Below, one piece after another: positions 25,692 through 63,735 of a stretch of DNA of 64,000 nucleotides (the first letter of the stretch is position 1; each line of letters starts with the position of its first letter). The notes beneath the pieces are model-generated. The model was not told the origin of the DNA and searched no databases. It saw only the letters and a list, made by a program, of their open reading frames with translations. The DNA is taken from the NCBI GenBank assembly GCA_965223165.1, contig CBDCVQ010000009.1, forward strand, positions 119,544 through 183,543. Direction: 5' to 3'. The position numbers were made by a program, and so were the translations under genes. The stretch is from Saprospiraceae bacterium. GTDB taxonomy: Bacteria; Bacteroidota; Bacteroidia; Chitinophagales; Saprospiraceae.

Positions 25692-28307
25692 CTAGTCTGA
25701 TCGCAAGGTAGTAGCCGGATTTATTGCCGCGGCCCTGGCACTCAAAAGACTAATGACGACGAGGCTCACCAATAAGATCATAAAGCACGCCAGGAGGAAG
25801 GCTCCCCCACCCAAGTGGATTCTATGCGCAAAATCTGCCAACCAGGCGCTAGTGACCGCATAACTTACCGGTATGGCTAAGGCAAAACTCAGCACGATGA
25901 TCAGCACAAAATCCTTACTTATCATACGGATGATAGACTGCGCGCTCGCGCCCAGGACTTTGCGTATACTGATCTCCCTCCTGCGCTGTTGCAGGGTCAA
26001 CGCCGTCAGTCCATATAGTCCTAGGACGCATAGAAGTAGACCGATCAAGGCAAAATATCTGGTGGTCCTGAGGAGCTTCTCTTCATCTTGGTACAGGGAG
26101 GCAAACCACTGGTCCACAAAATAAAATTCAAAAGGAGTTTTGGTGGCACTTTTGTTCCAGGCAGCCTCGATATGACTAAGACTGTTATCCAGGCTTTCGC
26201 CATCCAACTTGATCGAGGCATTCTGTACGTCATTTACACTGAGAAAAATGGCCATCGGTTCTACCGCCTCCGTAGCCAACGAGGCGTAGTGAAAGTCGTC
26301 GACGACACCGATAATCGGGTAGCCGGCATGCGCTCGATCTGGTTTGAGCCTTTTTCCCACCGGGTCCTCCCACTTTACGAAATCAATAAGGGACTGGTTG
26401 ACGATCACATGCATGCTATCGGCGATCGAATGGGTGAGAAAGGACCGGCCCTGATTGACGGTGAGACCGTAGGTCTCAAAAAAATCAGCATCGACCGAAA
26501 AAACTCGTGTGTTCACCTCCTCGTGCTGACCCTCCGGGATGAAGGTCGTCGAATAACTTCCTCCGCCAATCGCCGATCTTCCGATGGACACCGATAGTAC
26601 GCTCGGATGCTGCAACAAATCTGACTCGAAGACCTCTGCCTTAGCTCCAACCTCGTTGTACAGATCTACCACCACCACATTCTCCTTATCAAAACCCAAA
26701 GGCTTCTGCTGGAGATACGTCGTCTGCTTAATAATTACGATGGTGCATATGATGAGAATGGTAGCCATGCCGTACTGCACTCCTAGCAGCACCTTTCGGA
26801 TCAGACCGGCATCCTGCCACCCGCTCATGCTACCCTGGAGGATTCGAGAGGCCCGCGGTCGGGCCAGGATGAAGGCCGGATAGAGCCCCATCAACAGGCA
26901 GAAAACGAGATAGAGACTAAGCAGGGCAACAAAGGTGGAGGGCTGAAGTAGCAATCGGGGTGACAGATCCCTGCCGATCGTCTCGCCGACAGCTAGAAAA
27001 ACCTTGGGCAATATCGCATAGGCAATCATCGATGCCACCGTGAGATTAATGACCGTCTCGATCATGAACCGAACCATCAACTGAAAGCGCCCTGAGCCAA
27101 GGGCTTTACGCACTCCAATTTCCTTACGCTTTTCGAAGGCACGTGACAGGGTAATATTTATGTAGTTGACCACCACAATACACACGATGAGAAGGGTGGA
27201 CAAAATCAGCGAAGTCAGAAACCTCCTGCTGGTCAGATCCATTCCGCGCTGCGCCCTGATCTCGCTACCACGCAGATGAAGGGTTTGGAAGGGTTGCAGT
27301 CTAAGAAAATATTGATCGGCTCGCTCCGGGAAGAATCGCTCCATCATATCAGGCAGCTTGGCTTCCACAGAGGCTGGCACTGCTTGCGGATCCAACTCGA
27401 CGAAGGTGAGTAAGCTCTGTGCCAACCAATTGTTCATCCAGCCAAAGGACAACGGTCCAACGCCAGGCACGGTCGTGGACCAAGAGACCAGTGCTTCAAA
27501 TTGCAGGGTCGATTGTGGACCCGGATCCGCGATGACACCCTCGACCACAAATTCGATGTCATTTATACCGGTGATGGTCTGGCCCATGGGATCCGTGGAG
27601 GGGAAGATGCGCGTCGCCAGTTGCTCCGTAATCACCATCGACCGGGGGCTGCGTAAGACCTTGTCGGCATCGCCATGGAGCAAAGGGTAGTCGAACACAT
27701 CCAAAAATGAGGAGTCCACAAAGCACCAACCCGTCGTTTCGTGCATCTCATCATCCCGATATAGCCGGACCTTGTCCCACCAGGGGCAGATTCTCACCAC
27801 GCCTTTGATCTCAGGATATTCCCTCTTCATCGTCGGCCCCATCATTCCTGATGTTTCTGCCGTTAGGTGATCAATCTGCTCTCTTTCATTGAGATGCCTC
27901 TTGTACAATTGATAAATATGATCGCGCTTTTCATGGATCCGGTCATAATGGAGATCATGCCAGAGCAGGACAAAAGCAAACAGTGAGCAGGCGACGGCAC
28001 AGACCAGTCCCACTAGGTTAATAGCTGAAAATGACTTGCGTCGCAGCATCGATCGCCAGGCACTCACCCAATAGTTCACCAACATCCCAGAGGTCATGCC
28101 GCTGCTTCTATTTTGATTTCGAAAGCTCCAACGGAAAAAGCCCAGCGCCTGCCAAACATAAATCAGTCTTGCCAAGCGCACTCCGCGTCGCTGGACTTGT
28201 TGATGAAAACGCTCTTGCAGATCTCCCAGGATACCCTCTAGCAGATGTGGGTCGCAGAAGCGTTCCAGGAGTCTTACAATGACTTTCGGCGGTGCTGAAT
28301 TCTTCAT
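25692..28307 (-). CDS. Duplicated FtsX/MacB-type ABC permease with an N-terminal cytoplasmic 'prefix' domain (paralog 1 of 10)
   Basis: 871 aa. The prefix is PPKVIVRLLERFCDPHLLEGILGDLQERF. There are two FtsX modules (VNYINITLSRAFEKRKEIGVRKALGS and RRREISIRKVLGAS), each after a large extracytoplasmic domain. The C-terminus is NPATTLRSD. The start overlaps the padR stop by 4 nt. Confidence 0.9.
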   Translation of the reverse strand: MKNSAPPKVIVRLLERFCDPHLLEGILGDLQERFHQQVQRRGVRLARLIYVWQALGFFRWSFRNQNRSSGMTSGMLVNYWVSAWRSMLRRKSFSAINLVGLVCAVACSLFAFVLLWHDLHYDRIHEKRDHIYQLYKRHLNEREQIDHLTAETSGMMGPTMKREYPEIKGVVRICPWWDKVRLYRDDEMHETTGWCFVDSSFLDVFDYPLLHGDADKVLRSPRSMVITEQLATRIFPSTDPMGQTITGINDIEFVVEGVIADPGPQSTLQFEALVSWSTTVPGVGPLSFGWMNNWLAQSLLTFVELDPQAVPASVEAKLPDMMERFFPERADQYFLRLQPFQTLHLRGSEIRAQRGMDLTSRRFLTSLILSTLLIVCIVVVNYINITLSRAFEKRKEIGVRKALGSGRFQLMVRFMIETVINLTVASMIAYAILPKVFLAVGETIGRDLSPRLLLQPSTFVALLSLYLVFCLLMGLYPAFILARPRASRILQGSMSGWQDAGLIRKVLLGVQYGMATILIICTIVIIKQTTYLQQKPLGFDKENVVVVDLYNEVGAKAEVFESDLLQHPSVLSVSIGRSAIGGGSYSTTFIPEGQHEEVNTRVFSVDADFFETYGLTVNQGRSFLTHSIADSMHVIVNQSLIDFVKWEDPVGKRLKPDRAHAGYPIIGVVDDFHYASLATEAVEPMAIFLSVNDVQNASIKLDGESLDNSLSHIEAAWNKSATKTPFEFYFVDQWFASLYQDEEKLLRTTRYFALIGLLLCVLGLYGLTALTLQQRRREISIRKVLGASAQSIIRMISKDFVLIIVLSFALAIPVSYAVTSAWLADFAHRIHLGGGAFLLACFMILLVSLVVISLLSARAAAINPATTLRSD

Positions 28308-28801: not shown

Positions 28802-30136
28802 CTAATGAAGGGTCACGATAAACTCAGTGCCACCTTCTGGTGGAGAATAGGCAGATAGTGTACCGCCGTGCTGATAGATGATTTGGCGGCACAAGCTCAA
28901 CCCGATGCCTGAACCGTCCTTCTTGGTGGTAAAAAATGGAATGAAAATCTGGTCTAGTAATTCAGGAGGAATGCCGGGACCGCTGTCGATGATTCGGAAG
29001 ATGGTGCTTTCATCCCGTTTTTCGATAGAGATAATTATTTGACGCTCCTCGACTTCCTCGACCGCTTCTATCGCGTTTTTTATCAAATTGATGAATGTCT
29101 GCTCGAGCTGATCCGGGTCACCCATGAAAGGATATTCTTTCCCCTCATACTGCTTGATCAGATGGATCTCCCTGTCCTTGATCGCAGATTTCATCAGCAA
29201 CAAGATCCGATCCATGATCTCGGCGCCCTCCAGGGGCTCCTTTTGGGGTGGTGGTACTTTGGTCAGCTTTCGGTAGGTCTCGGTGAAATGCAGCAGCCCT
29301 TCGCTTCTCTTTTGAATCGCTCGGACCGCCGCCCGGATTTCCCCACGCACGTCTGGCGTCACTTCCACTTCCTGCGCCAGCAGGTCGTTGGTACTACCGG
29401 CCAATGACACGACGGGAGACACCGAGTTCATGATCTCATGCGTGAGGATTCTAATCAGTTTCTGCCAGCTGACAATCTCCTGTGCCTGCAATTCGGCATG
29501 AATATTCTGAAAGGAATAAATCAGATAAGTCAGGTCCTTGACACGCAGCTCTGTCTTTTGAATAGCCAGTTGGATGGTTTCTTGGGCCACGACTTTCTTA
29601 AACATCTGCTTATCGCCAGACTTCATTTCAAGCAGCAGGTCATGAAGGTCGTCGTCATACTTTCTAATGGATTCAAATGTCGGGAAAAATGATTTGTGCA
29701 GGGCCATCTGCAGCGCCTTGTTCATAAAGATCGTCTTTCCATTGTCCTCAAATCCGATCAAGCCAGTCTCTACCTTTTCCACCAGGGTCTGGAAATACTG
29801 AAATTGAATTTCCTTTTCCAGGCGAATATTCCGGAATTTCCCATTGATCATATTGAATGCGCCAAATAGGGCTTTCTCTGACTGCTCTTGTCCCGACTCT
29901 CGGTAATTGGTTTCGAAGTCATCGTATTTAATGCTCATCAGAAAATTGGCCAGATGGCGATTGGTCTGATTCACGACCCGAAAAAGACTGAAAATCGTGA
30001 AGACCCCCAGAACGACAAACAGCCCGCCCAGCAAAAAAGACTGCTGCTGAAAAATCAGGAACAACCCCCCCGCCAGCAGCAATACAAGCAGAGCGACGCG
30101 TGTAAAAACCTGCATCTTGAATTTCGTCAGCGTCAT
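28802..30136 (-). CDS. Membrane sensor histidine kinase
   Basis: Two N-terminal TM helices, H-box LTHEIMNSVSP, N-box INLIKNAIEA, and G-boxes IDSGPGIPPE and GSGIGLSLCRQI. It lies downstream of the response regulator on the same strand, after a 78-nt gap. Confidence 0.9.
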   Translation of the reverse strand: MTLTKFKMQVFTRVALLVLLLAGGLFLIFQQQSFLLGGLFVVLGVFTIFSLFRVVNQTNRHLANFLMSIKYDDFETNYRESGQEQSEKALFGAFNMINGKFRNIRLEKEIQFQYFQTLVEKVETGLIGFEDNGKTIFMNKALQMALHKSFFPTFESIRKYDDDLHDLLLEMKSGDKQMFKKVVAQETIQLAIQKTELRVKDLTYLIYSFQNIHAELQAQEIVSWQKLIRILTHEIMNSVSPVVSLAGSTNDLLAQEVEVTPDVRGEIRAAVRAIQKRSEGLLHFTETYRKLTKVPPPQKEPLEGAEIMDRILLLMKSAIKDREIHLIKQYEGKEYPFMGDPDQLEQTFINLIKNAIEAVEEVEERQIIISIEKRDESTIFRIIDSGPGIPPELLDQIFIPFFTTKKDGSGIGLSLCRQIIYQHGGTLSAYSPPEGGTEFIVTLH

Positions 30137-30214: not shown

Positions 30215-31594
30215 TCAAATCCCATATTTTTCCAAACGGCGATAGAGTGAGGTGCGAGTCAGACCCAGTTCAGCCGCAGCCTTAGAGATATTGCCATTGT
30301 GCTTTTTCAGAGCCATGCGAATTAGTTTTTCTTCTGCAGCTTCCAGCGTGGTGGGCTCAGGATCAGAATCCACTAGTGATGCGGAAGATCGGTTGACACC
30401 AAGTGCAATATCATCAGGCAGGATCACCACACCCTCACACATGATAACGGCACGTTCGATGATGTGCCGTAACTCTCGCACGTTGCCCGGCCAGTGGTAC
30501 TGATCCAACTTTTGCAAGCTCTCGTCGCTGAGTTGCAGCTCGGGTTTCTTGTACTTCTTGCGGTACTGCTCAAGGTAAAAGTGGGTTAGCAGCTCCACGT
30601 CACCCTTCCTGTCTCGGAGGGCAGGCAACTGGATTTCGACCGTGTTTATGCGGTATAAGAGGTCCTGTCGAAATGTATTTTCTTTGACCATGTCGTAGAG
30701 CGGCATATTTGTCGCGCAAATGAGGCGAATGTCGACACGAAGCGGCTGATTGCTGCCCACCGGAATAATCTCGTGGCGCTGTAAGGCCTGCAACAACTTG
30801 GCCTGCGAAGACTGCGGCAGATTGCCGATCTCGTCGAGAAACAACGTCCCGCCTGAGGCCGCTTCAAAACGGCCGATACGATCTTGATGTGCGCCGGTAA
30901 ATGACCCTTTTTTATGGCCAAATATCTCGCTTTCAAAGAGGGATTCGGGAATGGCCCCCAGATCGACCGGAATAAAGATCGAAGCGTTGCGTTGCGACTT
31001 GCGGTGAATGGCTCGTGCGATCAGCTCCTTGCCTGTACCATTTTCGCCCAGGATCAATACATGCGCATCCGTATCTGCGACTTTGTCGATGGTGCGAAAG
31101 ACAGCCTTCATTGTAGCGGACTCACCTACGATATCCACAAAGGGCTGATCCACCGCCTCACTGAGCGCACGTTGTGATACCGCCAGCTTTTCCGCCTTCT
31201 TTTCTGCCTGCCTTCGGTCGAAGGCTGCGCGGATTGTTGCGACCATCTTCTCATTGCGCCAAGGTTTTTCCACAAAGTCTGTCGCACCAGCCTTCAGTGC
31301 CTCTACCGCGATCTTGACGTCGCTGTAGGCCGTCATAGTGACCACCGGCACAAATGGCTGAATCTCCTTGGTCTTGCGCAGCCACTCCAGGCCTTCCTCT
31401 CCGGAGTCCCTCCCCTTGCCAAAATTCATGTCGAGTATGACGACATCAGGCTGGTGTAAACGCAATAAGCGAGGCAGGTGATAGGGGTTGTGATCGGTGA
31501 AAACGGCTTTGAAATGTTGCTTGAGCAGGAACTTGAGTGAAAACAGAATGTCCTCCTCATCGTCGATAATCAATATCGTACCTTCCTTGGCCAT
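30215..31594 (-). CDS. Sigma-54-dependent response regulator (NtrC family: REC, AAA+, Fis-type HTH)
   Basis: REC domain (ILIIDDEEDILFSL...VVILDMNF), Walker A GENGTGKE, GAFTGA-type loop (HKKGSFTGA), Walker B LFLDEIG, the PGNVRELRH motif, and C-terminal HTH NISKAAAELGLTRTSLYRRLEKYGI. Confidence 0.95.
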   Translation of the reverse strand: MAKEGTILIIDDEEDILFSLKFLLKQHFKAVFTDHNPYHLPRLLRLHQPDVVILDMNFGKGRDSGEEGLEWLRKTKEIQPFVPVVTMTAYSDVKIAVEALKAGATDFVEKPWRNEKMVATIRAAFDRRQAEKKAEKLAVSQRALSEAVDQPFVDIVGESATMKAVFRTIDKVADTDAHVLILGENGTGKELIARAIHRKSQRNASIFIPVDLGAIPESLFESEIFGHKKGSFTGAHQDRIGRFEAASGGTLFLDEIGNLPQSSQAKLLQALQRHEIIPVGSNQPLRVDIRLICATNMPLYDMVKENTFRQDLLYRINTVEIQLPALRDRKGDVELLTHFYLEQYRKKYKKPELQLSDESLQKLDQYHWPGNVRELRHIIERAVIMCEGVVILPDDIALGVNRSSASLVDSDPEPTTLEAAEEKLIRMALKKHNGNISKAAAELGLTRTSLYRRLEKYGI

Positions 31595-31614: not shown

Positions 31615-31630
31615 TGTACGATATCGTACA
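31615..31630. promoter_or_regulatory. Perfect 16-bp palindrome TGTACGATATCGTACA (candidate enhancer site for the adjacent sigma-54 activator)
   Basis: Read directly. It lies in the divergent spacer between the regulator (start 31594) and the adaptor gene (start 31746). Extra ATCGTAC(A) half-sites occur at 31574-31580 and 31656-31663. A 15/16 match is at 51447-51462. Confidence 0.6.
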
Positions 31631-31704
31631 TATAGTGCACGGTTCCGCACAGATTATCGTACACGCATTTGCACCCATACCTCTAATGTCTTGATTTACA
31701 ATAA

Positions 31705-31730
31705 CATATAGTTTTGGCATATATTTCTAT
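31705..31730 (+). promoter_or_regulatory. Conserved promoter box CATATAGTTTTGGCATATATTTCTAT (sigma-54 -24-like TGGCA; alternatively a Bacteroidota -7 box TAGTTTTG)
   Basis: 25 of 26 nt are identical to 51539-51564. TGGCA at 31715-31719 lies about 94 nt from the palindrome centre. The -12 region reads TCTA where canonical TGGCAC-N5-TTGC spacing predicts TTGC, so the sigma-factor assignment is open. Confidence 0.5.
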
Positions 31731-31745
31731 TACAGATACATAGAT

Positions 31746-32996
31746 ATGGATAGAAAAATCGAACGAAAGAAATGGCGATGGCAACGAATCCTACCGATTG
31801 TCATCATCGTAGGGATCTTGGGCTACGTGGGTCAGAGCGTCTATCGCAATAGCGGTAAGAGCAGGCTCAATGTCCAACCGGAGCGCCTACTCTTTGATAC
31901 GGTGCAGGAAGGTACCTTTCAAGAATTTATTCCTGTGACAGGGTCCGTCCTACCGATCAAGACGGTACTGATTGGGGCGGTCGAAGGAGGACGAGTCGAG
32001 AGCAAATTTCTGGAGGATGGCGTGCTGGTGAAGGCCAATCAGAAGATTCTCCAACTAAGCAATCCGGATCTCCAACTCAACTATGTGACGCAGGAGGCCT
32101 CTATCGTGGCTCAAATCAATCAAATCCGGAGCAACAGTCTCCTGATGGAGCAGCAGAGCCTACGACTCAAGGAAACTGCGCTGGACATCGACTATCAGAT
32201 TGATTTGTTGAGTAAGCGCGTGTCGAGAAATAAGAGCCTCTATGGCGATGGTGTCATTGCCGAAGTAGAATTTCAAGAGACGGAGGACGAATTTGAACAC
32301 CTCGAACGTCGAAAGCTACTACTGCAGGAGACCATTAAAAAAGATAGCGCCTCCGCCGAGCTGCAGCGACAACAGATGCAGAACACCCTGGACCTGATGC
32401 AACGCAACCTATCGATCGCCCGCAAGAGTCTTGAAAATCTCACCGTACGGGCACCGATAGATGGTCAACTTTCAGGCTTGGATTCAGAGCTGGGTGAACT
32501 GATCATCGAGAGCAGCCAAATTGCGCAGATTGACGACCTCTCCGATTTCAAAATACGCGTCCAGATCGATGAATTCTATATCTCTCGAGTTTTCGCAGGT
32601 CAATCCGGCTCATTTCAATTTGCGGGGGACACGTATTACCTAACCATTCAGAAAATATTTCCCCAGGTGATCAATGGGGCCTTCGCTGCTGACATGCTGT
32701 TTGAGGGCGAGACGCCCGATGGCATCAAGCGAGGCCAGACCGTCTCCGTCAAACTTGAGCTGAGTGCGCAGGAACGTGCACTGCTTGTCGCCAAAGGCGG
32801 ATTCTATCAGACGACCGGTGGCAACTGGGTCTATGTGCTTACGGCAGACGGAGCCGTTGCCACCAAGCGAGACATACGAGTGGGCAGGCAAAATCCCAAT
32901 TTTTACGAGGTGCTCAGCGGGCTCCAGAGTGGAGAGGTCGTAATCACCTCCAGCTATGAAAACTTTGGTGACAAGGATGAGCTTGTCATGAGATAA
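31746..32996 (+). CDS. HlyD/MacA-type periplasmic adaptor (membrane fusion protein)
   Basis: 416 aa with an N-terminal anchor helix (ILPIVIIVGILGYVG), a long coiled-coil middle, LTVRAPIDGQLSG (lipoyl/beta-barrel motif), and a C-terminal beta domain. It is the first gene of the ABC operon. Confidence 0.85.
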   Translation: MDRKIERKKWRWQRILPIVIIVGILGYVGQSVYRNSGKSRLNVQPERLLFDTVQEGTFQEFIPVTGSVLPIKTVLIGAVEGGRVESKFLEDGVLVKANQKILQLSNPDLQLNYVTQEASIVAQINQIRSNSLLMEQQSLRLKETALDIDYQIDLLSKRVSRNKSLYGDGVIAEVEFQETEDEFEHLERRKLLLQETIKKDSASAELQRQQMQNTLDLMQRNLSIARKSLENLTVRAPIDGQLSGLDSELGELIIESSQIAQIDDLSDFKIRVQIDEFYISRVFAGQSGSFQFAGDTYYLTIQKIFPQVINGAFAADMLFEGETPDGIKRGQTVSVKLELSAQERALLVAKGGFYQTTGGNWVYVLTADGAVATKRDIRVGRQNPNFYEVLSGLQSGEVVITSSYENFGDKDELVMR

Positions 32997-33091
32997 AAAG
33001 TAATTAGAAATGTAACTATATCGCTCGTCGTGCGTCCGTTTTTTGTGCGACCCGATTGAAAAATCAATTTAATCAACTTAACTAACCATTG

Positions 33092-33778
33092 ATGATAAAA
33101 ACTGACAAGCTCGTCAAGGTCTACACAACCGAAGACGTAGAGACCACAGCCCTTAACGAGGTCAATCTCGAAATCCAGGAGGGCGAATTTGTGGCCATAA
33201 TGGGGCCCTCAGGCTGTGGCAAATCGACCTTACTTAATGTATTGGGCATGATCGATAGCCCCACGGCAGGAGATTACTTCTTTCTCGAGCAAGAAGTAGG
33301 ACAACTGCCTGAACGCAAGCGGTCCAACGTACGCAAGCACAATCTTGGGTTCGTATTTCAGAGCTTTAATCTCATCGACGAACTGACAGTGTTTGAGAAT
33401 GTGGAACTGCCCATGTTATACACCAACACACCTAGTGCTGAGCGTAAGAAGAGAGTGGAAGAGCTGTTGGAAAACATGAAGATGATGCATCGGCGCAATC
33501 ACTTTCCCCAGCAATTATCGGGAGGACAGCAGCAGCGAGTCGCCGTGGCGCGAGCTATTGTCAATCATCCCAAATTAATTCTTGCGGATGAACCCACCGG
33601 TAACCTGGACAGTTCGAACGGCGATGATGTCATGAGGCTAATGGCCGATCTGAATGCTGCTGGCACCACCATCGTGATGGTGACACACTCGCAGTATTGC
33701 GCAGAGTTTGCCAACCGGATTGTGCGAATGCTTGACGGCCAGGTCGTTACGGAGAATGTGGTAAGACAATTCCTTTGA
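33092..33778 (+). CDS. ABC transporter ATP-binding protein (MacB/LolD-type NBD), copy A
   Basis: Walker A GPSGCGKST, Q-loop FVFQSFNL, signature LSGGQQQRVAVARA, Walker B LILADEPTGNLD, and H-loop MVTHS. Confidence 0.95.
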   Translation: MIKTDKLVKVYTTEDVETTALNEVNLEIQEGEFVAIMGPSGCGKSTLLNVLGMIDSPTAGDYFFLEQEVGQLPERKRSNVRKHNLGFVFQSFNLIDELTVFENVELPMLYTNTPSAERKKRVEELLENMKMMHRRNHFPQQLSGGQQQRVAVARAIVNHPKLILADEPTGNLDSSNGDDVMRLMADLNAAGTTIVMVTHSQYCAEFANRIVRMLDGQVVTENVVRQFL

Positions 33779-54307: not shown

Positions 54308-54356
54308 GCAGTGAACAATTAGCAATTAGCAATGAACAATTAACAATGAGCAATGA
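54308..54356 (+). repeat. Heptanucleotide tandem array (RCAATKA), 7 units
   Basis: GCAGTGA ACAATTA GCAATTA GCAATGA ACAATTA ACAATGA GCAATGA, read directly and contiguous with the hexamer array. Confidence 0.85.
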
Positions 54357-54430
54357 GCAGTTTATTAGGATCGTAGAGCACGGACGCTTTGCGGGAGTGA
54401 TCTGCGAGCCGCAACCAGGGATACAACTAG

Positions 54431-54728: not shown

Positions 54729-54730
54729 AT

Positions 54731-57103: not shown

Positions 57104-57104
57104 G

Positions 57105-57158
57105 CAATGGCAATTTCAATGGCAATTTCAATGGCAATTTCAATGGCAATAGCAATAC
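57105..57158 (+). repeat. Hexanucleotide tandem array (CAATGG/CAATTT alternating), 9 units
   Basis: It starts 1 nt after stop TGA 57101-57103: CAATGG CAATTT CAATGG CAATTT CAATGG CAATTT CAATGG CAATAG CAATAC. Confidence 0.9.
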
Positions 57159-57169
57159 GGAGGTCAGTT

Positions 57170-57217
57170 CAACAATTCAACAATTCAACAATTCAACAAT
57201 TCAACAATTCAACAATT
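57170..57217 (+). repeat. Octanucleotide tandem array (CAACAATT), 6 perfect units, ending 14 nt before the ATG of paralog 9
   Basis: Parsed directly. It is followed by CGACACCATAACAC then ATG (57232). The ACCATAA just before the start echoes the 54529 array unit. Confidence 0.9.
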
Positions 57218-57231
57218 CGACACCATAACAC

Positions 57232-59610
57232 ATGATTAGAAATTACTTCATCACGGCATATCGCAATTTGTGGCGGAACAAAATGGTGTCCGCGATCAGT
57301 ATTGTAGGACTATCCATTGGTATAGCTGTCGGGCTGCTCAGTTATCTTCATATCAGATACGAACTTAGCTTCGATGGATTTCACGATAAGAAAGACCGGA
57401 TCTATCGCATCGTCACCGGAGACGTCAAGTCCGGTCAAGGATGGGTGGGGATTTCGGCACCCATTCCTCCGAAATTAAAATCGGATATTCCCGAGATTGA
57501 AGATTTTGTGCGTCTGACCAAGCTGGACCGAGATGGAAAGGTCGTTGTCCACCACGACAACCAAAGTTTTAACGAGGCCAATTTCTTTCTGGCGGATGCC
57601 TCCCTGTTCTCCATTTTTGATTTTTCCTTTATTCATGGACAGCCCGAGCAGGCCTTTCAGACGCCCGATGGCATAGTCGTCACGGCTAGCAGGGCCGAAA
57701 AGTTGTTTGGGGCAAGTTCACCCCTGGGTAAGATTGTCAAGATCAACGACAAACACGAGTTTCGTGTCAGCGGTGTCATCGAAGATCTGCGGCCTAACTC
57801 GCACCTCGCGTTGGACATGATTGTTTCCTTCGAAAACTTGGAAACGCTGCTTCCGTACGCCAGCTTGGACGGCAACTGGGGACAATACAATTACTATGGT
57901 TATGCCCTACTCCGTCAAGGAGCCGATCTTGCTGCTGCCGAGCGCAAGATAAAAGCGATCGAAGTGCCCCTCAAAGATTACACGCATACTTTTGAACAGC
58001 TGGGGCTGCAGCCCATGACCGACATTCACTTCGAACACAATCGGGGGAATATGAAGGCCTCTTATGATCGTAAATATTTGTACATCTATGGGGCCTCTGC
58101 CCTTGGGCTCATCTTTATTTCTTTGGTCAACTTCATAAATCTGAAAACGGCTGGGTCGTCCAAACGCATCCGCGAGGTAGGCGTGCGAAAAGCGATCGGG
58201 GCAAGACGCGGCGAACTCGTGGTGCAGTTTGTTGCCGAGGCCTTCCTTCTTTGCCTGGTCTCGTTGGCCCTCGGCCTATTTATCATGAACACCTGGCTCC
58301 TGCCCTACGTCAATAATTTACTGGGTGCCGACCTCCAGTTTCACCTATTTGACCTCCCCAATGCCAGTCTTGGCCTCCTTGGCCTTCTCGTGATCAGCCT
58401 ATTGTCAGGTACCTATATCGCCCAATTCATCACGTCCTTCTCACCTATGGAGGCCCTCAAGAGTCAAATTAAGACCAGCTCAGGTCGTGGATTGAAGTTT
58501 CGTGATGTGCTGCTCGGCGTCCAGTTTTTTGTGTCTCTGATTTTGATCATTGGCAGCTTGATCATCACCCGCCAAATGCAGCATGTCTCCGATATCAACT
58601 TAGGTCTCAATCCGGACCAGGTCCTCAACATCCCGCTCTATGTCGAAGTGGAGAAGGAGAAGCGATCGGTCCTGAAGAACGAGTTGAACTCCCTACCCAA
58701 CGTCACCCACGTGTCACTCAACAGCTTTAATCCCGGTCAGGCCAATTGGAATCAGACCACCTGGTGGGAGGGGCAGGAAGAGGACGAGAGCATGTTTATC
58801 ATCAGTGTAGATCCTGACTTCTTTGAAACGGCCGACGTCAAATTAATCGAAGGTAGCCTTGACCACATCAAAAGCAACCTCAGCGAACGCTATACCTATG
58901 TGCTCAACCAGTCGGCCAGGCAACACATCGGATGGGAGCAGGCGGTGGGACGGCAAGTATCACCCTTTGGCGATGACGCCCGAAAGCCGGTAACCGGAGT
59001 GATCGAAGACTTCACCTTTCAGTCCCTGCACGATCGTGTAAAGCCATGCCTCCTGGTCGTAGGTGATCTTACCCCGTCCCAACTGTATGTAAAGGTCAGG
59101 GCACAAGATGTGCAGGCGACCGTAGCAGCCGTCGAGGACAAGTTGGCAAGCATTCTGCCGGCACTGCCCTTTGAATATGCGTTTTTGGATGATCTCTTCG
59201 GTCAGTTATATTTGGCAGAAACGCAAGCTAGAGAAATCAGTCTATTCTATACCATCGTTTGCATACTGCTGGCCTTATTCGGCTTATATGGGATTCTGAC
59301 GTTTGAAGTCACCGAACGAGCCAAAGAAATCGCCATTCGCAAAGTGATTGGGGCCAAGGTATTGCACATCGTGGGTCTACTTTCTCGCGACTTCTTAAGG
59401 CTCATCCTGATCGCACTCGTCTTGGCCTCTCCCATCGCCTATTTTATGATGGATGGATGGCTCCAGGATTTTGCCTACCGCATTGACATTCCGTGGTGGA
59501 TTTTTGTCGTCGCAGGTCTGGTGGCGGCGCTCATTGCCCTGGCAATTGTCGCACTCCAAGGTGTGCGTGCAGCTCTACTAAATCCCGTACACGCATTAAG
59601 AGGAGAATAA
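57232..59610 (+). CDS. Duplicated FtsX/MacB-type ABC permease (paralog 9)
   Basis: 792 aa with N-terminus MIRNYFITAYRNL. Motifs are VNFINLKTAGSSKRIREVGVRKAIGA and ERAKEIAIRKVIGAK; the C-terminus is NPVHALRGE. Confidence 0.9.
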   Translation: MIRNYFITAYRNLWRNKMVSAISIVGLSIGIAVGLLSYLHIRYELSFDGFHDKKDRIYRIVTGDVKSGQGWVGISAPIPPKLKSDIPEIEDFVRLTKLDRDGKVVVHHDNQSFNEANFFLADASLFSIFDFSFIHGQPEQAFQTPDGIVVTASRAEKLFGASSPLGKIVKINDKHEFRVSGVIEDLRPNSHLALDMIVSFENLETLLPYASLDGNWGQYNYYGYALLRQGADLAAAERKIKAIEVPLKDYTHTFEQLGLQPMTDIHFEHNRGNMKASYDRKYLYIYGASALGLIFISLVNFINLKTAGSSKRIREVGVRKAIGARRGELVVQFVAEAFLLCLVSLALGLFIMNTWLLPYVNNLLGADLQFHLFDLPNASLGLLGLLVISLLSGTYIAQFITSFSPMEALKSQIKTSSGRGLKFRDVLLGVQFFVSLILIIGSLIITRQMQHVSDINLGLNPDQVLNIPLYVEVEKEKRSVLKNELNSLPNVTHVSLNSFNPGQANWNQTTWWEGQEEDESMFIISVDPDFFETADVKLIEGSLDHIKSNLSERYTYVLNQSARQHIGWEQAVGRQVSPFGDDARKPVTGVIEDFTFQSLHDRVKPCLLVVGDLTPSQLYVKVRAQDVQATVAAVEDKLASILPALPFEYAFLDDLFGQLYLAETQAREISLFYTIVCILLALFGLYGILTFEVTERAKEIAIRKVIGAKVLHIVGLLSRDFLRLILIALVLASPIAYFMMDGWLQDFAYRIDIPWWIFVVAGLVAALIALAIVALQGVRAALLNPVHALRGE

Positions 59611-59618
59611 CGTAAAAA

Positions 59619-61286
59619 ATGAATCGCGTCATGAGATTTCGAATCATACACATTTTGATCGCTGCCATCTGCCTATCGCCAGCACCCATTTACGGCCAGC
59701 AGACGCTGACGGCCACACAGTGGCAAGAAGATCTGATCTATCTTAAACACAAAGTGCAAAGCGAGTACCCCTTCCTCTTTAAAAAGGTTACGGTCAAAGA
59801 GTTTGGAGAGGAAGTGGAGACCCTACATCGCTCGATTCCCGACCTTGCCGATCACGAGATCATCGCTGGGTTTGCACGCATCATCTCTCTTTTCAAATAT
59901 GGTCATACGAGGATGGGATTGCAGGGTGGTCCGGTCACTTTCCGCACCCTCCCGATAAACATCTATCAATTTAAGGACGGGTTTTATGTAGAGGGTACCC
60001 ATCGGGATTACAAACAGGCCCTCGGAGCACGTATTGTGCAAATCGAGGGAATGCCCGTAGCGGAGGCACTGCAAAAAATACGGCCGGTCATTCCTGCAGA
60101 AAATGATCAATTTGTGAAGGCTTACGGCCTCAGCTACCTGAGAGTTCCTGAAATCTTGCATGCCCAAGGCGTAACCAAAGAGCTCAAATCAGAGATCCGC
60201 ATGACGCTGGATAAAGACGGCCAATCGATCGATGTTACATTCACGGCCGGTACGGAACGGGCACCTACCCAGTACGGTTTTGTAGAGGAGGAAGACCCAT
60301 GGCTTAGCATGCGAAACCAAGAGGCTACACCTCGCTACCTCAAGCACCTGGACAAGATCTATTATCACGAATACCTACCTGAGCACAAGGCCCTCTATGT
60401 ACGACATAGTCAGATCCAGGACGATCCTGCCAAAGACATACCCGCGTTTTATGAAGAGGTATTTGCCTTTGTTGAAGACAACGACGTAGAGCGGTTAATT
60501 CTTGACGTCCGACTCAACGGAGGTGGCAACAATTACAAGAACAAGCCCATCGTCACCGGGGTAATAAAAAGTGACAAGATCAATCAACCCGGTCAATTTA
60601 TCGTCATCATCGGCCGGCGCACTTTTTCGGCCTGCCAAAACCTAGTTAACGAACTCGACAATTATACGCAGGCCATCTTCATAGGCGAGCCTACCTCTGA
60701 AAACGTCAACTTCTACGGTGATAATCGGCGGGTGGAACTACCAAATAGTAAAATGTCTGCCTACCTGTCCTTTGCCTGGTGGCAAGACAAGCCCCCATGG
60801 GAAAATGCCCCCCACCTTGCGCCACATGTCGCCGTGGAGATGAGTGCCGCAGAGTATGCTGCTAATGCGGATCCGGTGCTGGATCTTGCCTTGACGTACT
60901 CGTCCAAGGACTTCGTGAGCGACCCCATGGCGCACCTCACCAAACTATTTGAGCAAGGTAAGATTGCAGAAGTCGAATCAGCGGCCAGACGTTTTGTCGC
61001 TGACCCCAGATATCAGTTTGTCGACTTCGAGGACAACTTCAATCGTGCTGGGTACAATTTAATGCAAGGCGATCGCCTCGAGGAGGCACTATTTGTTTTC
61101 CGCCTGAACAATGAATTGTTTCCCGAATCTGCTAACACCTGGGACAGTCTGGGTGAGGCGTTACACAAGGCAGATCGAAGGGACGAAAGTATAAGCCACT
61201 ATAAGAAGGCCATCGAACTGGATCCGGACGGTCCGGTGGGCGAAAACGCTCGAAAAATGCTGGCCGAGATCGACACACAAGACTGA
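59619..61286 (+). CDS. Secreted S41-peptidase-like protein with C-terminal TPR repeats
   Basis: Signal peptide (ILIAAICLSPAPIYGQQ). LILDVRLNGGGN and GRRTFSACQNL resemble the S41 D-x-R-x-N-x-GG and Ser-nucleophile regions. The C-terminal TPR-like part reads NTWDSLGEALHKADRRDESISHYKKAIELDP. It starts 8 nt after the paralog-9 stop. Confidence 0.55.
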   Translation: MNRVMRFRIIHILIAAICLSPAPIYGQQTLTATQWQEDLIYLKHKVQSEYPFLFKKVTVKEFGEEVETLHRSIPDLADHEIIAGFARIISLFKYGHTRMGLQGGPVTFRTLPINIYQFKDGFYVEGTHRDYKQALGARIVQIEGMPVAEALQKIRPVIPAENDQFVKAYGLSYLRVPEILHAQGVTKELKSEIRMTLDKDGQSIDVTFTAGTERAPTQYGFVEEEDPWLSMRNQEATPRYLKHLDKIYYHEYLPEHKALYVRHSQIQDDPAKDIPAFYEEVFAFVEDNDVERLILDVRLNGGGNNYKNKPIVTGVIKSDKINQPGQFIVIIGRRTFSACQNLVNELDNYTQAIFIGEPTSENVNFYGDNRRVELPNSKMSAYLSFAWWQDKPPWENAPHLAPHVAVEMSAAEYAANADPVLDLALTYSSKDFVSDPMAHLTKLFEQGKIAEVESAARRFVADPRYQFVDFEDNFNRAGYNLMQGDRLEEALFVFRLNNELFPESANTWDSLGEALHKADRRDESISHYKKAIELDPDGPVGENARKMLAEIDTQD

Positions 61287-61299: not shown

Positions 61300-63735
61300 A
61301 TGTGGAGAAATTATTTGAAGATTGCCCGGCGCCAGATGCGCAACAAATGGCAGCTTTCCGCGCTCAAAATACTGGGCTTGGCATCTGCAGTTTCGGCCAG
61401 TCTGCTACTGATTAAATACGTCTCCTGGCAGTGGACCTTTGACCGCTTTCACGAGCAGGCAGCACATATTGTCAGAATTCAGAATGACCACCACGATGTG
61501 GAAGGGCGATTAAGTCGCAGTGCCAAGACCTACAGCGGTGTAGCTGTGGTGGCTAATGATCGATTTCCGGCGGTGCACGACTATGTGCGGATGGGGCGCT
61601 GGATTGCCAACGATGTGGTGTTTAGATTTGAGGAACAGATGTTCCGTGGAAGGGACGTATTCTTTGTCGATTCTTCTTTCTTTGATGTTTTCAGCTTTGA
61701 GCTGGTCAGAGGCGATCCTCAGAATGCACTTGCGGAGCCAAACAGTGTCGTGCTCACAGAAAAGGTCGCCCGTCAACTCTTCGGCGATCGGGAAGCCATC
61801 GGAGAGGAAATTATTTTCGAAAATCGACGAAATTTTCACGTAACCGGCATAGTGGCGGATCCTCCCAAGGAATCTCACATCCAATTTGACATTCTTGCAT
61901 CTCTGTCCACTTTTCACAGCTGGGGATTTCAGGTATACGGAGATGCACAATTACGACAACCCTATGTCTATAGCTACCTCTTGCTAGAACCGGGCACCGA
62001 TGTCCCGGAACTCGCTACCCAATTGACCCGTGAGATTAGTTCACTGAAGGTTGACATTCCCGGATCAGACGAATTCGACTTGCAGCCCCTCACCGAGATT
62101 CACCTCTATTCCAACCTAGAGCAGGAATTATCAAGTACTGGTCAGGGAAATAATATCTGGATCCTCAGTGGAGTCGCTCTGCTGATTTTGTTGCTTGGAT
62201 GGATCAATCATTTTAATCTGTTTACCGCCTCAGCCCTGCAGCAGTCAGAGTCGCTGAGCATCCGAAAGATCATCGGTGCTGAGCGAAAACACTTATTCGC
62301 CCAGATCGCCATCGCAGGTAGTATCTATGGCATGCTCAGTCTAGCCCTTGCCGCTGTCGTTGTTGAGGTTGTTCAGCCCTTGATTTCAGCCAACTTCGAT
62401 GTGCCTTTGGCAGAAGTTCCGTTGGTAAATTGGCAAATTTCCAATCCCGCATTTATCTTATTGATCCTTCTCGTCGTCGGTACCGGCCTTAGTATTTGGG
62501 GGCCCGCCATCCTACTGTCGGAAATCCGGCCCAAGCACCTGCTCAGTCGCAAGCTATTTTTCAATCCGGGCGGTTGGCACTTCCGACGTGTCCTGGTGGG
62601 CTTCCAGTTTACGATCATCATTTGCTTACTCGCATGTACAATCGTGGTCTTTCAGCAGACGCGATATATGCAGCGGCAGGATCCGGGACTTGCAGTTGAT
62701 GACGTGCTGGTTTTAAGAGCTCCCCTGGGCATTGGCTACGAGAATCTAAGGGGCAGTTTCCCCGGATTTAGAGATGACGTGATGAGCCGAGGCGAAGTGC
62801 TCCAAATGAGCCTTTCTCATTCCATCCCTGGGGAGGAATTGGAGCTAATAAATAAAGTTGAGCACAACGGCAAGACCTATAGCTTCAGTTTTTATCGCAA
62901 TTATGGCAGCCTGGATTATTTCGACAGTTATGATATCGCCTTTCTGGAGAAATCAGATGTCCTTTCTGCACCCGCTGCCGCCCAAGGCTCCGATGAGCTT
63001 CGTCGCTCTGTGATTAATCAAAAGGCCTCGCAACTGCTTGGGTTTGCCTCACCTGCCGAGGCAATCGGTCAAAAGATCAGACGGTGGGAGCAGGACCAAG
63101 TGATCGTTGCGGTGGTGGACGATTATCATCAGCGCTCGTTACACCACGCCCAGGCTCCCATCATCTACGACATTATCGCCAACGATCTGATCGAAGATGG
63201 GTACTATTCCTTTGAGTTAAATCATCCTGACGAGAGGACATTGTTGCTCACGCATCTTCAAGATGCCTATCAAAAGGCATTTCCCCATACCGTTTTTGAA
63301 CCCGTTGATCCCCAGGAGCAATACGCGCAGCAGTATGCACAAGACAATCATTTTGCTCAACTCAATATGGCCTTTACTGTCCTCGGCATTTTGATCGGCG
63401 TACTTGGGCTCTTGGGTCTGATGATCATTGTGGTTGAAATGCGAACCCGGGAAGTCAGCGTCAGGCGAATACTCGGTGCAACCTACTGGCAGATCATTTC
63501 TACGCTGTCACATCAGCTGGTTAAGGCAGTGATCATAAGCTTTTTGATCGCCCTGCCCGTGGGATATTATTTAATGGGAAAGTGGTTGGATAATTTCAGC
63601 TACCACGTTGCTGTGGATTTTGGCGCTTTCGCGATCTCTGGCATGGTAGCTCTCCTATTGGTGCTACTGACAGTCGCCTATCACGGCATCAAGGTGGCCA
63701 AACTTAATCCCGCGGATGTGTTGCGGGAGGAGTGA
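61300..63735 (+). CDS. Duplicated FtsX/MacB-type ABC permease (paralog 10, most divergent)
   Basis: 811 aa with N-terminus MWRNYLKIARRQM. Motifs are INHFNLFTASALQQSESLSIRKIIGA and MRTREVSVRRILGAT; the C-terminus is NPADVLREE. Confidence 0.85.
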   Translation: MWRNYLKIARRQMRNKWQLSALKILGLASAVSASLLLIKYVSWQWTFDRFHEQAAHIVRIQNDHHDVEGRLSRSAKTYSGVAVVANDRFPAVHDYVRMGRWIANDVVFRFEEQMFRGRDVFFVDSSFFDVFSFELVRGDPQNALAEPNSVVLTEKVARQLFGDREAIGEEIIFENRRNFHVTGIVADPPKESHIQFDILASLSTFHSWGFQVYGDAQLRQPYVYSYLLLEPGTDVPELATQLTREISSLKVDIPGSDEFDLQPLTEIHLYSNLEQELSSTGQGNNIWILSGVALLILLLGWINHFNLFTASALQQSESLSIRKIIGAERKHLFAQIAIAGSIYGMLSLALAAVVVEVVQPLISANFDVPLAEVPLVNWQISNPAFILLILLVVGTGLSIWGPAILLSEIRPKHLLSRKLFFNPGGWHFRRVLVGFQFTIIICLLACTIVVFQQTRYMQRQDPGLAVDDVLVLRAPLGIGYENLRGSFPGFRDDVMSRGEVLQMSLSHSIPGEELELINKVEHNGKTYSFSFYRNYGSLDYFDSYDIAFLEKSDVLSAPAAAQGSDELRRSVINQKASQLLGFASPAEAIGQKIRRWEQDQVIVAVVDDYHQRSLHHAQAPIIYDIIANDLIEDGYYSFELNHPDERTLLLTHLQDAYQKAFPHTVFEPVDPQEQYAQQYAQDNHFAQLNMAFTVLGILIGVLGLLGLMIIVVEMRTREVSVRRILGATYWQIISTLSHQLVKAVIISFLIALPVGYYLMGKWLDNFSYHVAVDFGAFAISGMVALLLVLLTVAYHGIKVAKLNPADVLREE

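Follow-up and report, generated by a model that had tools for sequence, protein, structure and literature searches.

The window, by which we mean the whole 64-kb stretch of DNA that was analysed, contained ten intact open reading frames (ORFs) for fused double MacB-type permeases (P1 to P10), one adaptor gene (MFP) and two genes for separate ABC ATPases (NBD-A and NBD-B); the adaptor and the two ATPases are called the engine below. The features were located as follows.

25692-28307, minus strand: P1, fused double MacB-type permease of 871 aa with an N-terminal perm_prefix_2 domain (Pfam, 2x MacB_PCD and 2x FtsX; 8 TM).
28304-28630, minus strand: PadR-family regulator of 108 aa (Pfam PadR, 36 bits against a cutoff of 27), its stop overlapping the P1 start by 4 nt.
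28802-30136, minus strand: sensor histidine kinase with N-terminal TM segments (Pfam HATPase_c).
30215-31594, minus strand: sigma-54-dependent response regulator (REC, AAA+ Sigma54_activat, HTH_8; Sigma54_activat at 1.8e-67), divergent from the adaptor gene.
31615-31651, no strand: two palindromic TGTNCG-N4-CGTACA sites 21 bp apart (motif search), candidate enhancer for the response regulator.
31711-31733, plus strand: candidate sigma-54 -24/-12 promoter, degenerate at -12, formed by the conserved element TTTGGCATATATTT some 30 nt ahead of the adaptor ATG.
31746-32996, plus strand: periplasmic adaptor (MFP, HlyD/DarC-like) of 416 aa with an N-terminal TM anchor (Pfam HlyD_3; NCBIfam RND_mfp above cutoff).
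33089-33778, plus strand: NBD-A, ABC ATPase of the MacB/LolD type in which the motifs are canonical (Pfam ABC_tran; 274.6 bits with the DarD model).
33853-34557, plus strand: NBD-B, paralogous ABC ATPase 46% identical to NBD-A (profile matches, tblastn).
34717-37167, plus strand: P2, the first of three fused double permeases in the engine operon (Pfam; 62-70% orthologue directly in the engine operon of three of four relatives).
37231-39663, plus strand: P3, the second of these three fused double permeases (Pfam; 53% orthologue in the L004 engine operon).
39770-42241, plus strand: P4, the third of these fused double permeases, with which the engine operon ends (Pfam).
42260-42390, plus strand: (CAATGG/CAATTT)n tandem array directly after the P4 stop (repeat scan).
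45714-46046, plus strand: PadR-family regulator of 110 aa (ORF and Pfam), its stop overlapping the P5 start by 4 nt.
46043-48655, plus strand: P5, prefix-bearing fused permease of 870 aa (profile matches; 54-55% orthologues in PadR-led arrays without NBDs).
48652-51279, plus strand: P6, prefix-bearing fused permease of 875 aa, its start overlapping the P5 stop by 4 nt (54% orthologue in the L009 PadR array).
51447-51483, no strand: second paired TGTNCG-N4-CGTACA site set (motif search).
51545-51567, plus strand: second copy of the engine promoter element, located about 100 nt ahead of the P7 ATG and identical over 21 nt (AGTTTTGGCATATATTTCTAT; sequence match).
51668-54115, plus strand: P7, fused permease in a stand-alone position, placed in the engine regulon (Pfam; engine-type enhancer and promoter upstream).
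54731-57103, plus strand: P8, stand-alone fused permease with (ACCATAAR)x25 ahead of it (Pfam).
57232-59610, plus strand: P9, fused permease with a spacer of 8 nt between it and the S41/TPR gene that follows (Pfam).
59619-61286, plus strand: secreted protein with a signal-peptide-like N-terminus, a weak partial S41-peptidase match and a C-terminal TPR (Pfam), possible periplasmic partner.
61300-63735, plus strand: P10, most divergent fused permease (Pfam; paralogue comparison).
54111-54359, 57099-57156 and 63731-64000: arrays similar to that after P4, following P7, P8 and P10, respectively.

All ten double-FtsX ORFs of the first-pass annotation were present, at the positions where it had placed them, and the Pfam profile search that it had proposed detected MacB_PCD (PF12704) and FtsX (PF02687) above the gathering score in every protein. 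Each permease comprised two MacB_PCD and two FtsX modules and eight TM helices; FtsX passed the gathering score twice in every protein, and MacB_PCD twice in eight and once in P4 and P10. A hydropathy scan placed the helices in a 1+3 / 1+3 layout around two extracytoplasmic blocks of about 250 aa each, P6 showing seven peaks at the threshold used. The permease motifs quoted earlier and the invariant C-terminal NP-x3-LR were both found; in P2 the E-[VI]-G-[IV]-R-K coupling helices lay at residues 327-336 and 721-729, with NPxxxLR at the C-terminus. The AF2 model of P2 (pLDDT 83) contained two alpha/beta domains (46-290 and 470-680), and its best match in the PDB by Foldseek was E. coli YbbP over the full length (E 5.6e-20), followed by MacB (3.9e-14), LolCDE, BceAB and HrtBA, with a probability of 1.00 throughout.

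The claim that only two NBDs and one adaptor accompany these permeases was borne out when both NBDs, the adaptor and two permeases were compared by tblastn with the six frames of the window, which yielded exactly two NBDs, one adaptor and ten permeases. The NBDs were co-operonic with P2-P4, and no NBD adjoined any of the other seven permeases in the window. The adaptor scored 124.6 bits with RND_mfp (cutoff 94.9) and 206 bits with the DarC model, under the cutoff of the latter. NBD-A had LSGGQQQR and a GNLD D-loop, and NBD-B departed from this canon (LSGGQQQL and GNLH); the departures were kept in its orthologues, the Arg to Leu change after LSGGQQQ in 117 of 121 and the Asp to His change of the D-loop in all 121. 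Identity to the relatives was 89-93% for NBD-A and 85-89% for NBD-B; such conservation is normal for ABC ATPases and is by itself no evidence of a hub role. In agreement with the first-pass annotation, no OEP/TolC domain was detected in the scanned window ORFs of at least 150 aa (a few ORFs nested in larger genes were left out), nor was an outer-membrane factor found among the called genes beside the engine in four relatives; this component could be encoded away from both the window and the engine.

The response regulator carried a GSFTGA loop at residue 230 and was 72-77% identical in relatives, and the histidine kinase lay beside it in four related genomes (61-68% identity). The palindrome motif matched six times in the window against 0.47 expected, and the matches were confined to two loci: the adaptor gene and P7 were the only genes with the paired palindromes and the identical 21-nt promoter element upstream, and our window motif search found neither upstream of P8-P10. 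The adaptor-upstream palindromes were conserved in L004, L007 and L008, the pairs lying about 100 nt upstream, and TTTGGCATAT was unchanged across four genomes, with an invariant TGGCA -24 half. Wider relatives approached TGGCAY-N5-TTGC; because the -12 half was TCTA, not TTGC, in this genome, the sequence makes sigma-54 dependence of the engine operon only probable.

P1, P5 and P6 each bore an N-terminal prefix domain of 75-85 aa, which matched perm_prefix_2 (NF038404; cutoff 35 bits) with 61.6, 61.5 and 54.3 bits, respectively; the profile search did not find this domain in the other seven permeases. Its model (pLDDT 72) showed three helices (12-21, 24-45 and 47-61), and no match to Pfam HAAS-related models (DUF1700/DUF1129/DUF1048-like), no PDB sequence match and no significant PDB fold match were obtained. 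A PadR gene 79% identical to that of the window was present upstream of the P5-orthologue arrays in L009 and L010, where the PadR-led permease arrays were conserved without NBDs; in relatives, units of the P1 and P5-P6 type were separated from the engine by 0.43 Mb and up to 7.2 Mb and had no neighbouring NBD. The S41/TPR gene was separated by 13 nt from P10. The CAATGG/CAATTT-type arrays were found nowhere else in the window and in none of ten related loci. The two PadR genes, the prefix domain, the divergent sigma-54 regulator with its histidine kinase and the interrupting genes had been overlooked in the first-pass annotation; the last are unrelated genes coding for a SnoaL protein, a 402-aa protein and a split alanine racemase.

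All-against-all comparison of the ten permeases gave an overall identity of 23-38%. That the periplasmic segments are less alike than the TM cores, as had been judged by eye, was confirmed by the values for the periplasmic blocks (PCD1 25.6%, PCD2 24.2%) against those for the TM blocks (34% and 43%). The best conserved segments of all ten paralogues were the presumed NBD-docking elements: the coupling helices and the C-terminal helix were 48-52% identical, compared with roughly 30% for the whole proteins and roughly 25% for the periplasmic domains, the first coupling helix of P10 being divergent. A cytoplasmic coupling helix following TM2 in each unit and a C-terminal minor coupling helix have been assigned this role (PMC5985334, PMC12646458). 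Within the P2 orthologue group the periplasmic domains were about as conserved (58-60%) as the TM blocks (57-66%), which points to a separate constraint on each periplasmic domain.

Comparison with related genomes, also proposed at the outset, showed that the engine was kept and that the number and set of permeases varied. In four related Saprospirales genomes, the histidine kinase and sigma-54 regulator genes lay beside a divergent MFP-NBD-A-NBD-B-permease operon with one, two, at least four and at least four permeases; identity to the window was 89-93% for NBD-A, 85-87% for NBD-B and 76-81% for the MFP. The P7 orthologue (59%) lay inside the engine operon in L004 and L008; in both it was the last readable permease gene of the operon and itself ran over the locus end. 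Conversely, the P4 orthologue (56%) was stand-alone in L010 and kept an engine-type enhancer and promoter. P2, P3, P4, P5, P6 and P7 all had 53-70% orthologues in other genomes, and clustering of all ten permeases was not conserved.

The permease family comprised 21,314 cluster representatives. In 48 metagenomic loci we counted 154 permeases and 14 NBDs, that is, about 11 permeases per neighbouring NBD, and 34 of the 48 lacked an NBD. The metagenomes held MFP-NBD-permease operons with four to seven permeases and also arrays of eight or nine permeases without any NBD.

Gene order and regulatory DNA divided the locus into at least five units: the engine operon with P2-P4, P7, the PadR-P1 and PadR-P5-P6 units, P8, and P9-S41/TPR-P10. 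We consider it probable, from these comparisons of sequence, that the locus is composed, as a mosaic, of units under separate control, in which the engine would be shared by P2-P4 and P7 and the remainder would be PadR-permease units and other orphans. In the proposed mechanism, the histidine kinase and the response regulator would activate the divergent operon MFP, NBD-A, NBD-B, P2, P3 and P4. We infer that NBD-A pairs with NBD-B in a differentiated heterodimer, whose two subunits would each engage one of the coupling helices of a fused, pseudo-dimeric permease, in the way that two YbbA subunits bind one YbbP. P2, P3 and P4 would use the same ATPase pair and adaptor in turn, and P7, expressed from its own copy of the enhancer and promoter, would use them as well. 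A common engine for these four permeases seems well supported by the conserved engine, the P7 orthologue in the engine operon and the stand-alone P4 orthologue with its engine-type promoter. As the four differ mainly in their periplasmic domains, they would probably act on different envelope substrates by mechanotransmission. In the PadR-P1 and PadR-P5-P6 units, a cytoplasmic three-helix prefix may be coupled to a PadR repressor, most likely for sensing and autoregulated efflux after the HAAS-PadR dyad, and P8 and P9-S41/TPR-P10 are further orphans. Other MacB-type NBD genes may exist beyond the window and may serve P7 or other orphans.

The first-pass annotation had proposed a repertoire in which all ten permeases are interchangeable cartridges on the single NBD-A/NBD-B and adaptor engine. 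The part concerning P2-P4, co-operonic with the only NBD pair of the window and with the adaptor in a module found in four relatives, and P7, with its enhancer/promoter copy and its orthologue in the engine operon, found support. For the locus as a whole we find the proposal quite unlikely: although the 64 kb hold only two NBDs and one adaptor, the NBD-docking motifs are kept in all ten and orphan arrays are the rule in this family, so that, provided that these proteins are active, ATPases working in trans must be widespread, P1, P5 and P6 are under their own PadR control and remote from the engine in relatives, P8-P10 show no engine link, co-location of the ten is not conserved, and the first coupling helix of P10 has diverged. 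How one adaptor could dock on periplasmic domains with only about 25% identity is also not obvious, making its fit to ten such domains doubtful. It is possible, if on balance unlikely, that P1, P5, P6, P8, P9 and P10 are instead powered by MacB/LolD-type ATPases encoded elsewhere and lie near the engine incidentally. The distant PadR arrays of the relatives and the many metagenomic arrays in which the position of the NBD varies, or in which 10 kb around them contain none, are consistent with this, as is the size of the source contig (604 kb) and of the genome (probably 6-8 Mb), most of which lies beyond the window; however, the ratio of about 11 permeases to each neighbouring NBD makes one-to-one dedicated ATPases unlikely, and no candidate ATPase was seen in ten fully annotated related loci without the engine.

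Some orphans might not transport at all, the prefix permeases being PadR-linked envelope sensors and P9 and P10 FtsX-like regulators of the S41/TPR protein, possibly without ATP hydrolysis. The translational coupling of the PadR genes to prefix permeases, the HAAS-PadR dyad concept, which covers FtsX/MacB_PCD fusions (PMC11237479), the closeness of the S41/TPR gene to P9 and P10, and the precedent of FtsEX and YbbAP-TesA, Type VII systems able to drive periplasmic hydrolases (PMC12646458), all point that way. We nevertheless hold it to be doubtful, since the coupling helices of these paralogues are as conserved as those of P2-P4, which argues that ATPase binding was retained; moreover, the S41 match is weak and partial and the prefix did not match HAAS. 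As for recent tandem duplication or decay without functional differentiation, the tandem arrangement and the simple-sequence repeats between some genes would fit, but the low identity among paralogues, the full length and intact motifs of all ten ORFs and the orthologue pairs of P2-P7 in other genomes contradict it and leave it scarcely credible. The preferred mosaic reading could be generalised: a conserved, differentiated NBD-A/NBD-B heterodimer with one adaptor would drive a variable complement of fused MacB-type permeases, whether encoded in cis or in trans, in an ECF-like modular arrangement within Type VII ABC transporters. This would explain how the very large orphan ADOP-like family is powered, and the permeases of the PadR/prefix type would signal the activity of the transporters to the transcription machinery. 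We regard this extension as speculative and unlikely.

Sequence clusters of duplicated MacB-type permeases without ATPase genes number in the tens of thousands, and genomes of soil and aquatic Bacteroidota and of Acidobacteria carry dozens of copies each. The present locus and its relatives provide a concrete, testable case, with one ATPase pair and adaptor, probably sigma-54-controlled, and four candidate client permeases, two of which (P4 and P7) swap between operon and stand-alone positions among genomes. If sharing were confirmed, the principle of one motor for many membrane modules would extend to mechanotransmission pumps, and the annotation and counting of such genes in resistance and secretion surveys would change; if it were refuted, the orphans would have to be explained otherwise, for instance as sensors or as scaffolds that work independently of ATP.

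In group II ECF transporters, one ATPase module energises several membrane modules, whose genes lie in cis or in trans. One ATPase likewise serves several membrane modules in the MsmK/MsiK sugar importers (PMC4519317) and in MceG with Mce1 and Mce4 (PMC9947336). A shared ATPase, part of the mix-and-match architecture for which the first-pass annotation knew of no experimental demonstration, is established in other ABC classes (importers, Mce and ECF), where it was shown experimentally; in the literature searched we found no experimental case for Type VII/MacB-type systems. [quoted passage not shown] MacAB-TolC shares the FtsX-type 4-TM unit, the periplasmic core domain, the major and minor coupling helices and the adaptor (PMC5985334), and differs in its fused MacB NBD, its homodimeric permease and its requirement for TolC. 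In E. coli YbbAP-TesA (PDB 9GE6/9GE7; PMC12646458), YbbP is a fused pseudo-dimeric Type VII permease bound by two NBDs through two coupling helices; however, it has 10 TM helices including a linking pair, against eight here, at 13-14% sequence identity, YbbA is a homodimer, the partner TesA is a hydrolase and not an adaptor, and there is one permease per ATPase gene.

The DarBCD darobactin exporter (NF038008, NF038010, NF038007) combines, like the engine operon, a fused double permease, a HlyD-type adaptor and a separate MacB-type ATPase, and, among named models, those of DarBCD scored best with the adaptor and with both NBDs and second-best with the permeases, although all scores were far under the equivalog cutoffs (86-155 bits for the permeases against 700 for DarB, NF038008). 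No darA/darE-type, radical-SAM or precursor-peptide genes were seen in the window, and the engine operon differs from DarBCD in having two ATPase genes, not one, and several permeases, not one. The permeases themselves are close in architecture to the acidobacterial duplicated orphan permeases (ADOP, TIGR03434), an already described family of "duplicated orphan permeases" whose organisation is understudied. ADOP arrays had thus been named, and a ten-paralogue cluster published from genomic island 43 of Psychroflexus torquis (PMC3914696), which makes the earlier claim of a new mix-and-match architecture too strong; further transporter genes, which include ATP-binding regions, lie in that cluster as well, and the proteins that it encodes are abundant (PMC3914696). 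Dyadobacter genomes carried 28-33 ADOP copies. ADOP proteins share with those of the window the 2x(MacB_PCD+FtsX) structure, a length of about 800 aa, large paralogous families and tandem clusters usually with no adjoining ATPase gene; here duplication was seen in 10 of 10 and lack of an adjacent NBD in 7 of 10. Since the window permeases scored 186-307 bits, below the ADOP cutoff of 622.3, they are relatives of ADOP and not members sensu stricto. Unlike ADOP, they come from Bacteroidota (Saprospirales), three of them lie in cis with ATPase genes and one more shares the promoter.

The ten large ORFs of the window (P1 to P10) were present in the ORF list where the first-pass annotation had placed them, and in the Pfam scan all ten passed the gathering score for both MacB_PCD and FtsX, with two FtsX matches in every permease and two MacB_PCD matches in eight, P4 and P10 having one each. 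When the ABC ATPases (NBDs), the adaptor and two permeases were compared with the whole window by tblastn, we found two NBDs (NBD-A and NBD-B, 46% identical to each other), one HlyD-type adaptor (MFP), ten permeases and no more; a further ABC ATPase or a TolC-like protein was not detected among the other large window ORFs with Pfam and NCBIfam. The annotated inventory of ten double-FtsX permeases, two ATPase genes and one adaptor, with no outer-membrane factor in the window, was thus borne out, and the alignment confirmed the motifs quoted there as well as the NP-x3-LR that is invariant at the C-terminus.

A hydropathy scan indicated eight TM helices arranged as TM1, about 250 aa, TM2-4, TM5, about 240 aa and TM6-8, with only seven peaks for P6 at the threshold used. 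Because the TM4-TM5 linker has only about 30 residues, the window permeases are direct 8-TM tandem fusions, and therefore of another type than the 10-TM YbbP/BceB permeases (PMC5985334). The AlphaFold2 model of P2 (31-sequence alignment, pLDDT 83, pTM 0.76) showed coupling helices at residues 327-336, after TM2, and 721-729, after TM6. Its top fold match with Foldseek was E. coli YbbP, over the full length (E 6e-20), with MacB, LolCDE, BceAB and HrtBA ranking behind; a PDB sequence search with P2 retrieved single-unit MacB-type chains only, YbbP surfacing by fold alone. In YbbAP one fused permease binds two NBD subunits via two coupling helices (PMC12646458), which makes two NBD genes exactly one engine's worth per fused permease, and by this analogy two NBD genes would not in themselves be a shortfall. 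The nearest NCBIfam model for all ten permeases was TIGR03434, "ADOP family duplicated permease" (186-307 bits, cutoff 622), followed by the darobactin permease DarB, and the best models were DarC for the adaptor and DarD for both NBDs, also with scores under cutoff. Membership of the window permeases in ADOP sensu stricto, as well as in DarB, was ruled out by these scores.

The ten paralogues were 23-38% identical overall. Of their blocks, the periplasmic ones diverged most (25.6% and 24.2% identity) and similarity was greatest in the TM blocks (34% and 43%), in agreement with what had been noticed by eye. Within the P2 orthologue group, periplasmic domains (58-60%) and TM blocks (57-66%) were equally conserved. 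Conservation within P2 orthologues together with the greatest divergence between paralogues indicates that the periplasmic domains are old and stably differentiated, a pattern that would fit differing substrates or partners but does not fit a recent duplication; recent duplication or pseudogenes were ruled out by the 23-38% identities and the intact ORFs. Of all segments compared, identity across the ten was highest, at 48-52%, in the coupling helices and C-terminal helix. Since the NBD-docking elements were kept in all ten permeases, all of them probably still bind some ATPase.

The locus is a mosaic, not a single unit. Its central part is an operon in the order MFP, NBD-A, NBD-B, P2, P3 and P4, with intergenic spacers of 63-159 nt, the first three genes being referred to here as the engine:

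28802-30136, histidine kinase, divergent from MFP
30215-31594, sigma-54-type response regulator with a GSFTGA loop, divergent from MFP
31746-32996, HlyD-type adaptor (MFP)
33089-33778, NBD-A
33853-34557, NBD-B

The divergent region of 152 nt contained a pair of TGTNCG-N4-CGTACA palindromes, separated by 21 bp, and an invariant TTTGGCATAT element that precedes the adaptor ATG by about 30 nt; three related genomes have conserved both the palindrome pair and the element. In the window the candidate promoter was degenerate in its -12 half, the equivalent sites of wider relatives reading TGGCAT-N5-TTGC. The strict TGGCAC-N5-TTGC promoter gave no match at the engine operon, the relaxed search was swamped by CAATGG repeats, and a generic promoter/terminator scan was not better than shuffles. 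Judging from the sequence, sigma-54 dependence of the engine operon is probable.

Relatives of NBD-B at 85-89% identity were found in Saprospiraceae and Lewinellaceae assemblies. In all four relative contexts the order was histidine kinase and response regulator, divergent from MFP, NBD-A and NBD-B, then 1, 2, at least 4 and at least 4 fused permeases, so that the comparison of loci showed a conserved engine with a changing permease set.

Identity of the engine and regulator proteins of the relatives to those of the window
NBD-A, 89-93%
NBD-B, 85-87%
MFP, 76-81%
Response regulator, 72-77%
Histidine kinase, 61-68%

High NBD conservation was discarded as a sign of a hub role, since NBDs are generally, and to our knowledge always, the most conserved ABC subunit. 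P2 was the sole window permease for which three of four relatives had an orthologue (62-70%), P3 had one in a single relative (53%), and several of the relatives' in-operon permeases had no window orthologue.

In NBD-B the signature reads LSGGQQQ-L, the signature-adjacent Arg being replaced by Leu in 117 of 121 orthologues, and the D-loop Asp is His in all 121. NBD-A is canonical at both positions, and Walker A, Walker B and the H-loop are kept in both proteins. These departures of NBD-B from the canonical NBD-A suggest an asymmetric ATPase heterodimer, and an obligate NBD-A/NBD-B heterodimer on an asymmetric fused permease would fit them. We know of no description of an asymmetric ATPase heterodimer for Type VII ABC systems.

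The palindrome pair together with an identical 21-nt AGTTTTGGCATATATTTCTAT occurred at exactly two places in the window of 64 kb, one before the adaptor gene and the other before the apparent orphan P7, with a spacing that was taken as the same at both copies (98 and 100 nt). The palindrome motif had 6 matches in the window against 0.47 expected, and none of 100 shuffles had as many. The P7 orthologue (59%) was the last readable permease gene within the engine operon in two relatives, and in one of these the P4 orthologue (56%) was stand-alone, with an engine-type enhancer and promoter, on the contig of the engine operon but at a distance of up to 7.2 Mb from it. These positions imply that orthologous permeases shift between operon and stand-alone locations with the engine regulatory signature retained, from which we conclude that P2, P3, P4 and P7 would constitute one regulon served by MFP, NBD-A and NBD-B, a reading well supported by the comparison; the P7 and P4 evidence is the strongest result for engine sharing. 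The proposal of a shared engine with interchangeable permeases is thus supported in part, for these four, and the ten-permease repertoire is not a conserved unit.

Three other permeases, P1, P5 and P6, were the only ones of the ten with an N-terminal perm_prefix_2 domain above cutoff (NCBIfam), and are found in units led by a PadR gene:

28304-28630, minus strand, PadR gene overlapping the P1 start by 4 nt
45714-46046, plus strand, PadR gene overlapping the P5 start by 4 nt

P5 and P6 also overlap by 4 nt. Their orthologues in relatives (54-55%) belonged to arrays that are headed by a PadR gene and contain two to four permeases with the prefix. These arrays shared a contig with the engine operon, at distances of 0.43 Mb and up to 7.2 Mb, and neither an NBD nor an adaptor was found within 10 kb of them. 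One PadR gene preceded up to four consecutive prefix permeases (878, 866, 864 and 857 aa) in two related loci (L009, 4229-15187; L010, 2960-5967 and 9672-15274). Should the prefix signal to PadR, a single repressor would receive input from several sensors. The arrangement matches the HAAS-PadR dyad, whose proposal lists FtsX/MacB_PCD fusions (PMC11237479). The prefix domains alone had no Pfam match, and neither a sequence profile search nor a fold search of the model gave a match in the PDB; the predicted model of three helices (pLDDT 72) was the one support for a possible tie to HAAS. Since the prefix sits where MacB has its fused NBD, beside an amphipathic helix before TM1, it could conceivably sense the ATPase cycle.

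P7 and P8 are each stand-alone genes, the genes for P9, P10 and the secreted S41/TPR-like protein between them are tightly packed (spacers of 8 and 13 nt), and no link of P8-P10 to the engine was detectable. The array is broken by unrelated genes, namely a SnoaL-like gene, that of a 402-aa protein and a split alanine racemase gene, of which the first two separate the engine operon from the second PadR unit; they are listed here together with two other places in the window:

20979-23597, plus strand, carbamoyltransferase (NodU-like), then a small SxtJ-like protein; unrelated to the permease finding and adjoining a TonB-dependent receptor and a TPR-adenylate-cyclase protein
42503-42892, plus strand, SnoaL-like protein of 129 aa
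43026-44234, plus strand, 402-aa protein with no Pfam match, a weak MIDAS-adhesin match and a lipoprotein-like N-terminus
44262-45547, minus strand, alanine racemase, split, with overlap, between the ORFs 44262-44843 and 44795-45547
59619-61286, plus strand, secreted protein between P9 and P10, matching S41 peptidase in part and with TPR at its C-terminus

The S41/TPR protein may belong to a Type VII system as a partner in the periplasm, much as EnvC does with FtsEX or TesA with YbbAP. No link of the 402-aa or SnoaL-like protein to the permeases was found, and the split of the alanine racemase is a frameshift, reflecting either a pseudogene or a sequencing error. Hexamer-based tandem arrays of CAATGG/CAATTT/CAATGA with periods of 6, 12 and 18 (42260-42390, 54111-54359, 57099-57156 and 63731-64000) start at, or no more than about 20 nt past, the stop codons of P4, P7, P8 and P10, all in gene orientation, and coincide with predicted transcription-unit 3' ends; none occurred in the rest of the window or in ten related loci. 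Octamer arrays lie close to two starts, (ACCATAAA/ACCATAAG)x25 at 54529-54729, ending one base ahead of the P8 ATG, and (TTCAACAA)x7 at 57168-57222, ending 9 nt ahead of the P9 ATG. Slipped-strand mispairing in them could change leader length and so the phase or level of expression of single permeases.

Among 50%-identity cluster representatives, searched exhaustively, there were 21,314 matches at E<=1e-30, and the best 150 of them were nearly all full length, many with an N-terminal extension of 70-90 aa. A neighbourhood sample of 48 metagenomic loci, each of at least 12 kb (862 kb in total) and anchored on one relative each, contained about 154 fused permease genes, 14 NBD genes, 6 adaptors and 11 PadR genes; 34 of the 48 had no NBD, and arrays of 8-9 permeases without any NBD over 22 kb were among them. 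Spirosoma terrae had four fused permeases in 22 kb and no NBD, and a scan of genome contigs with P10 yielded distant relatives only (29-37%).

That mix-and-match had not been demonstrated held in so far as no experimental work on such permease arrays was found in the literature on Type VII shared ATPases or on PadR with FtsX, but the kind is known and ATPases serving several systems are recorded in other ABC classes (PMC4519317, PMC9947336). What seems undescribed in the searchable literature is a conserved heterodimeric ATPase pair, an adaptor that would work, in cis as well as in trans, with fused permeases whose set changes, and one sigma-54 two-component system that would control that set. 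Many duplicated permeases with few ATPases are already a known kind, as recorded for Psychroflexus torquis, with a 42-kb highly translated cluster of ten ADOP paralogues and other transporter genes (PMC3914696), and for Dyadobacter, with 28-33 ADOP copies per genome (PMC11573002). The known kin are ADOP-like duplicated orphan permeases, DarBCD-like and YbbAP-like fused Type VII systems, and the shared ATPases of other ABC classes.
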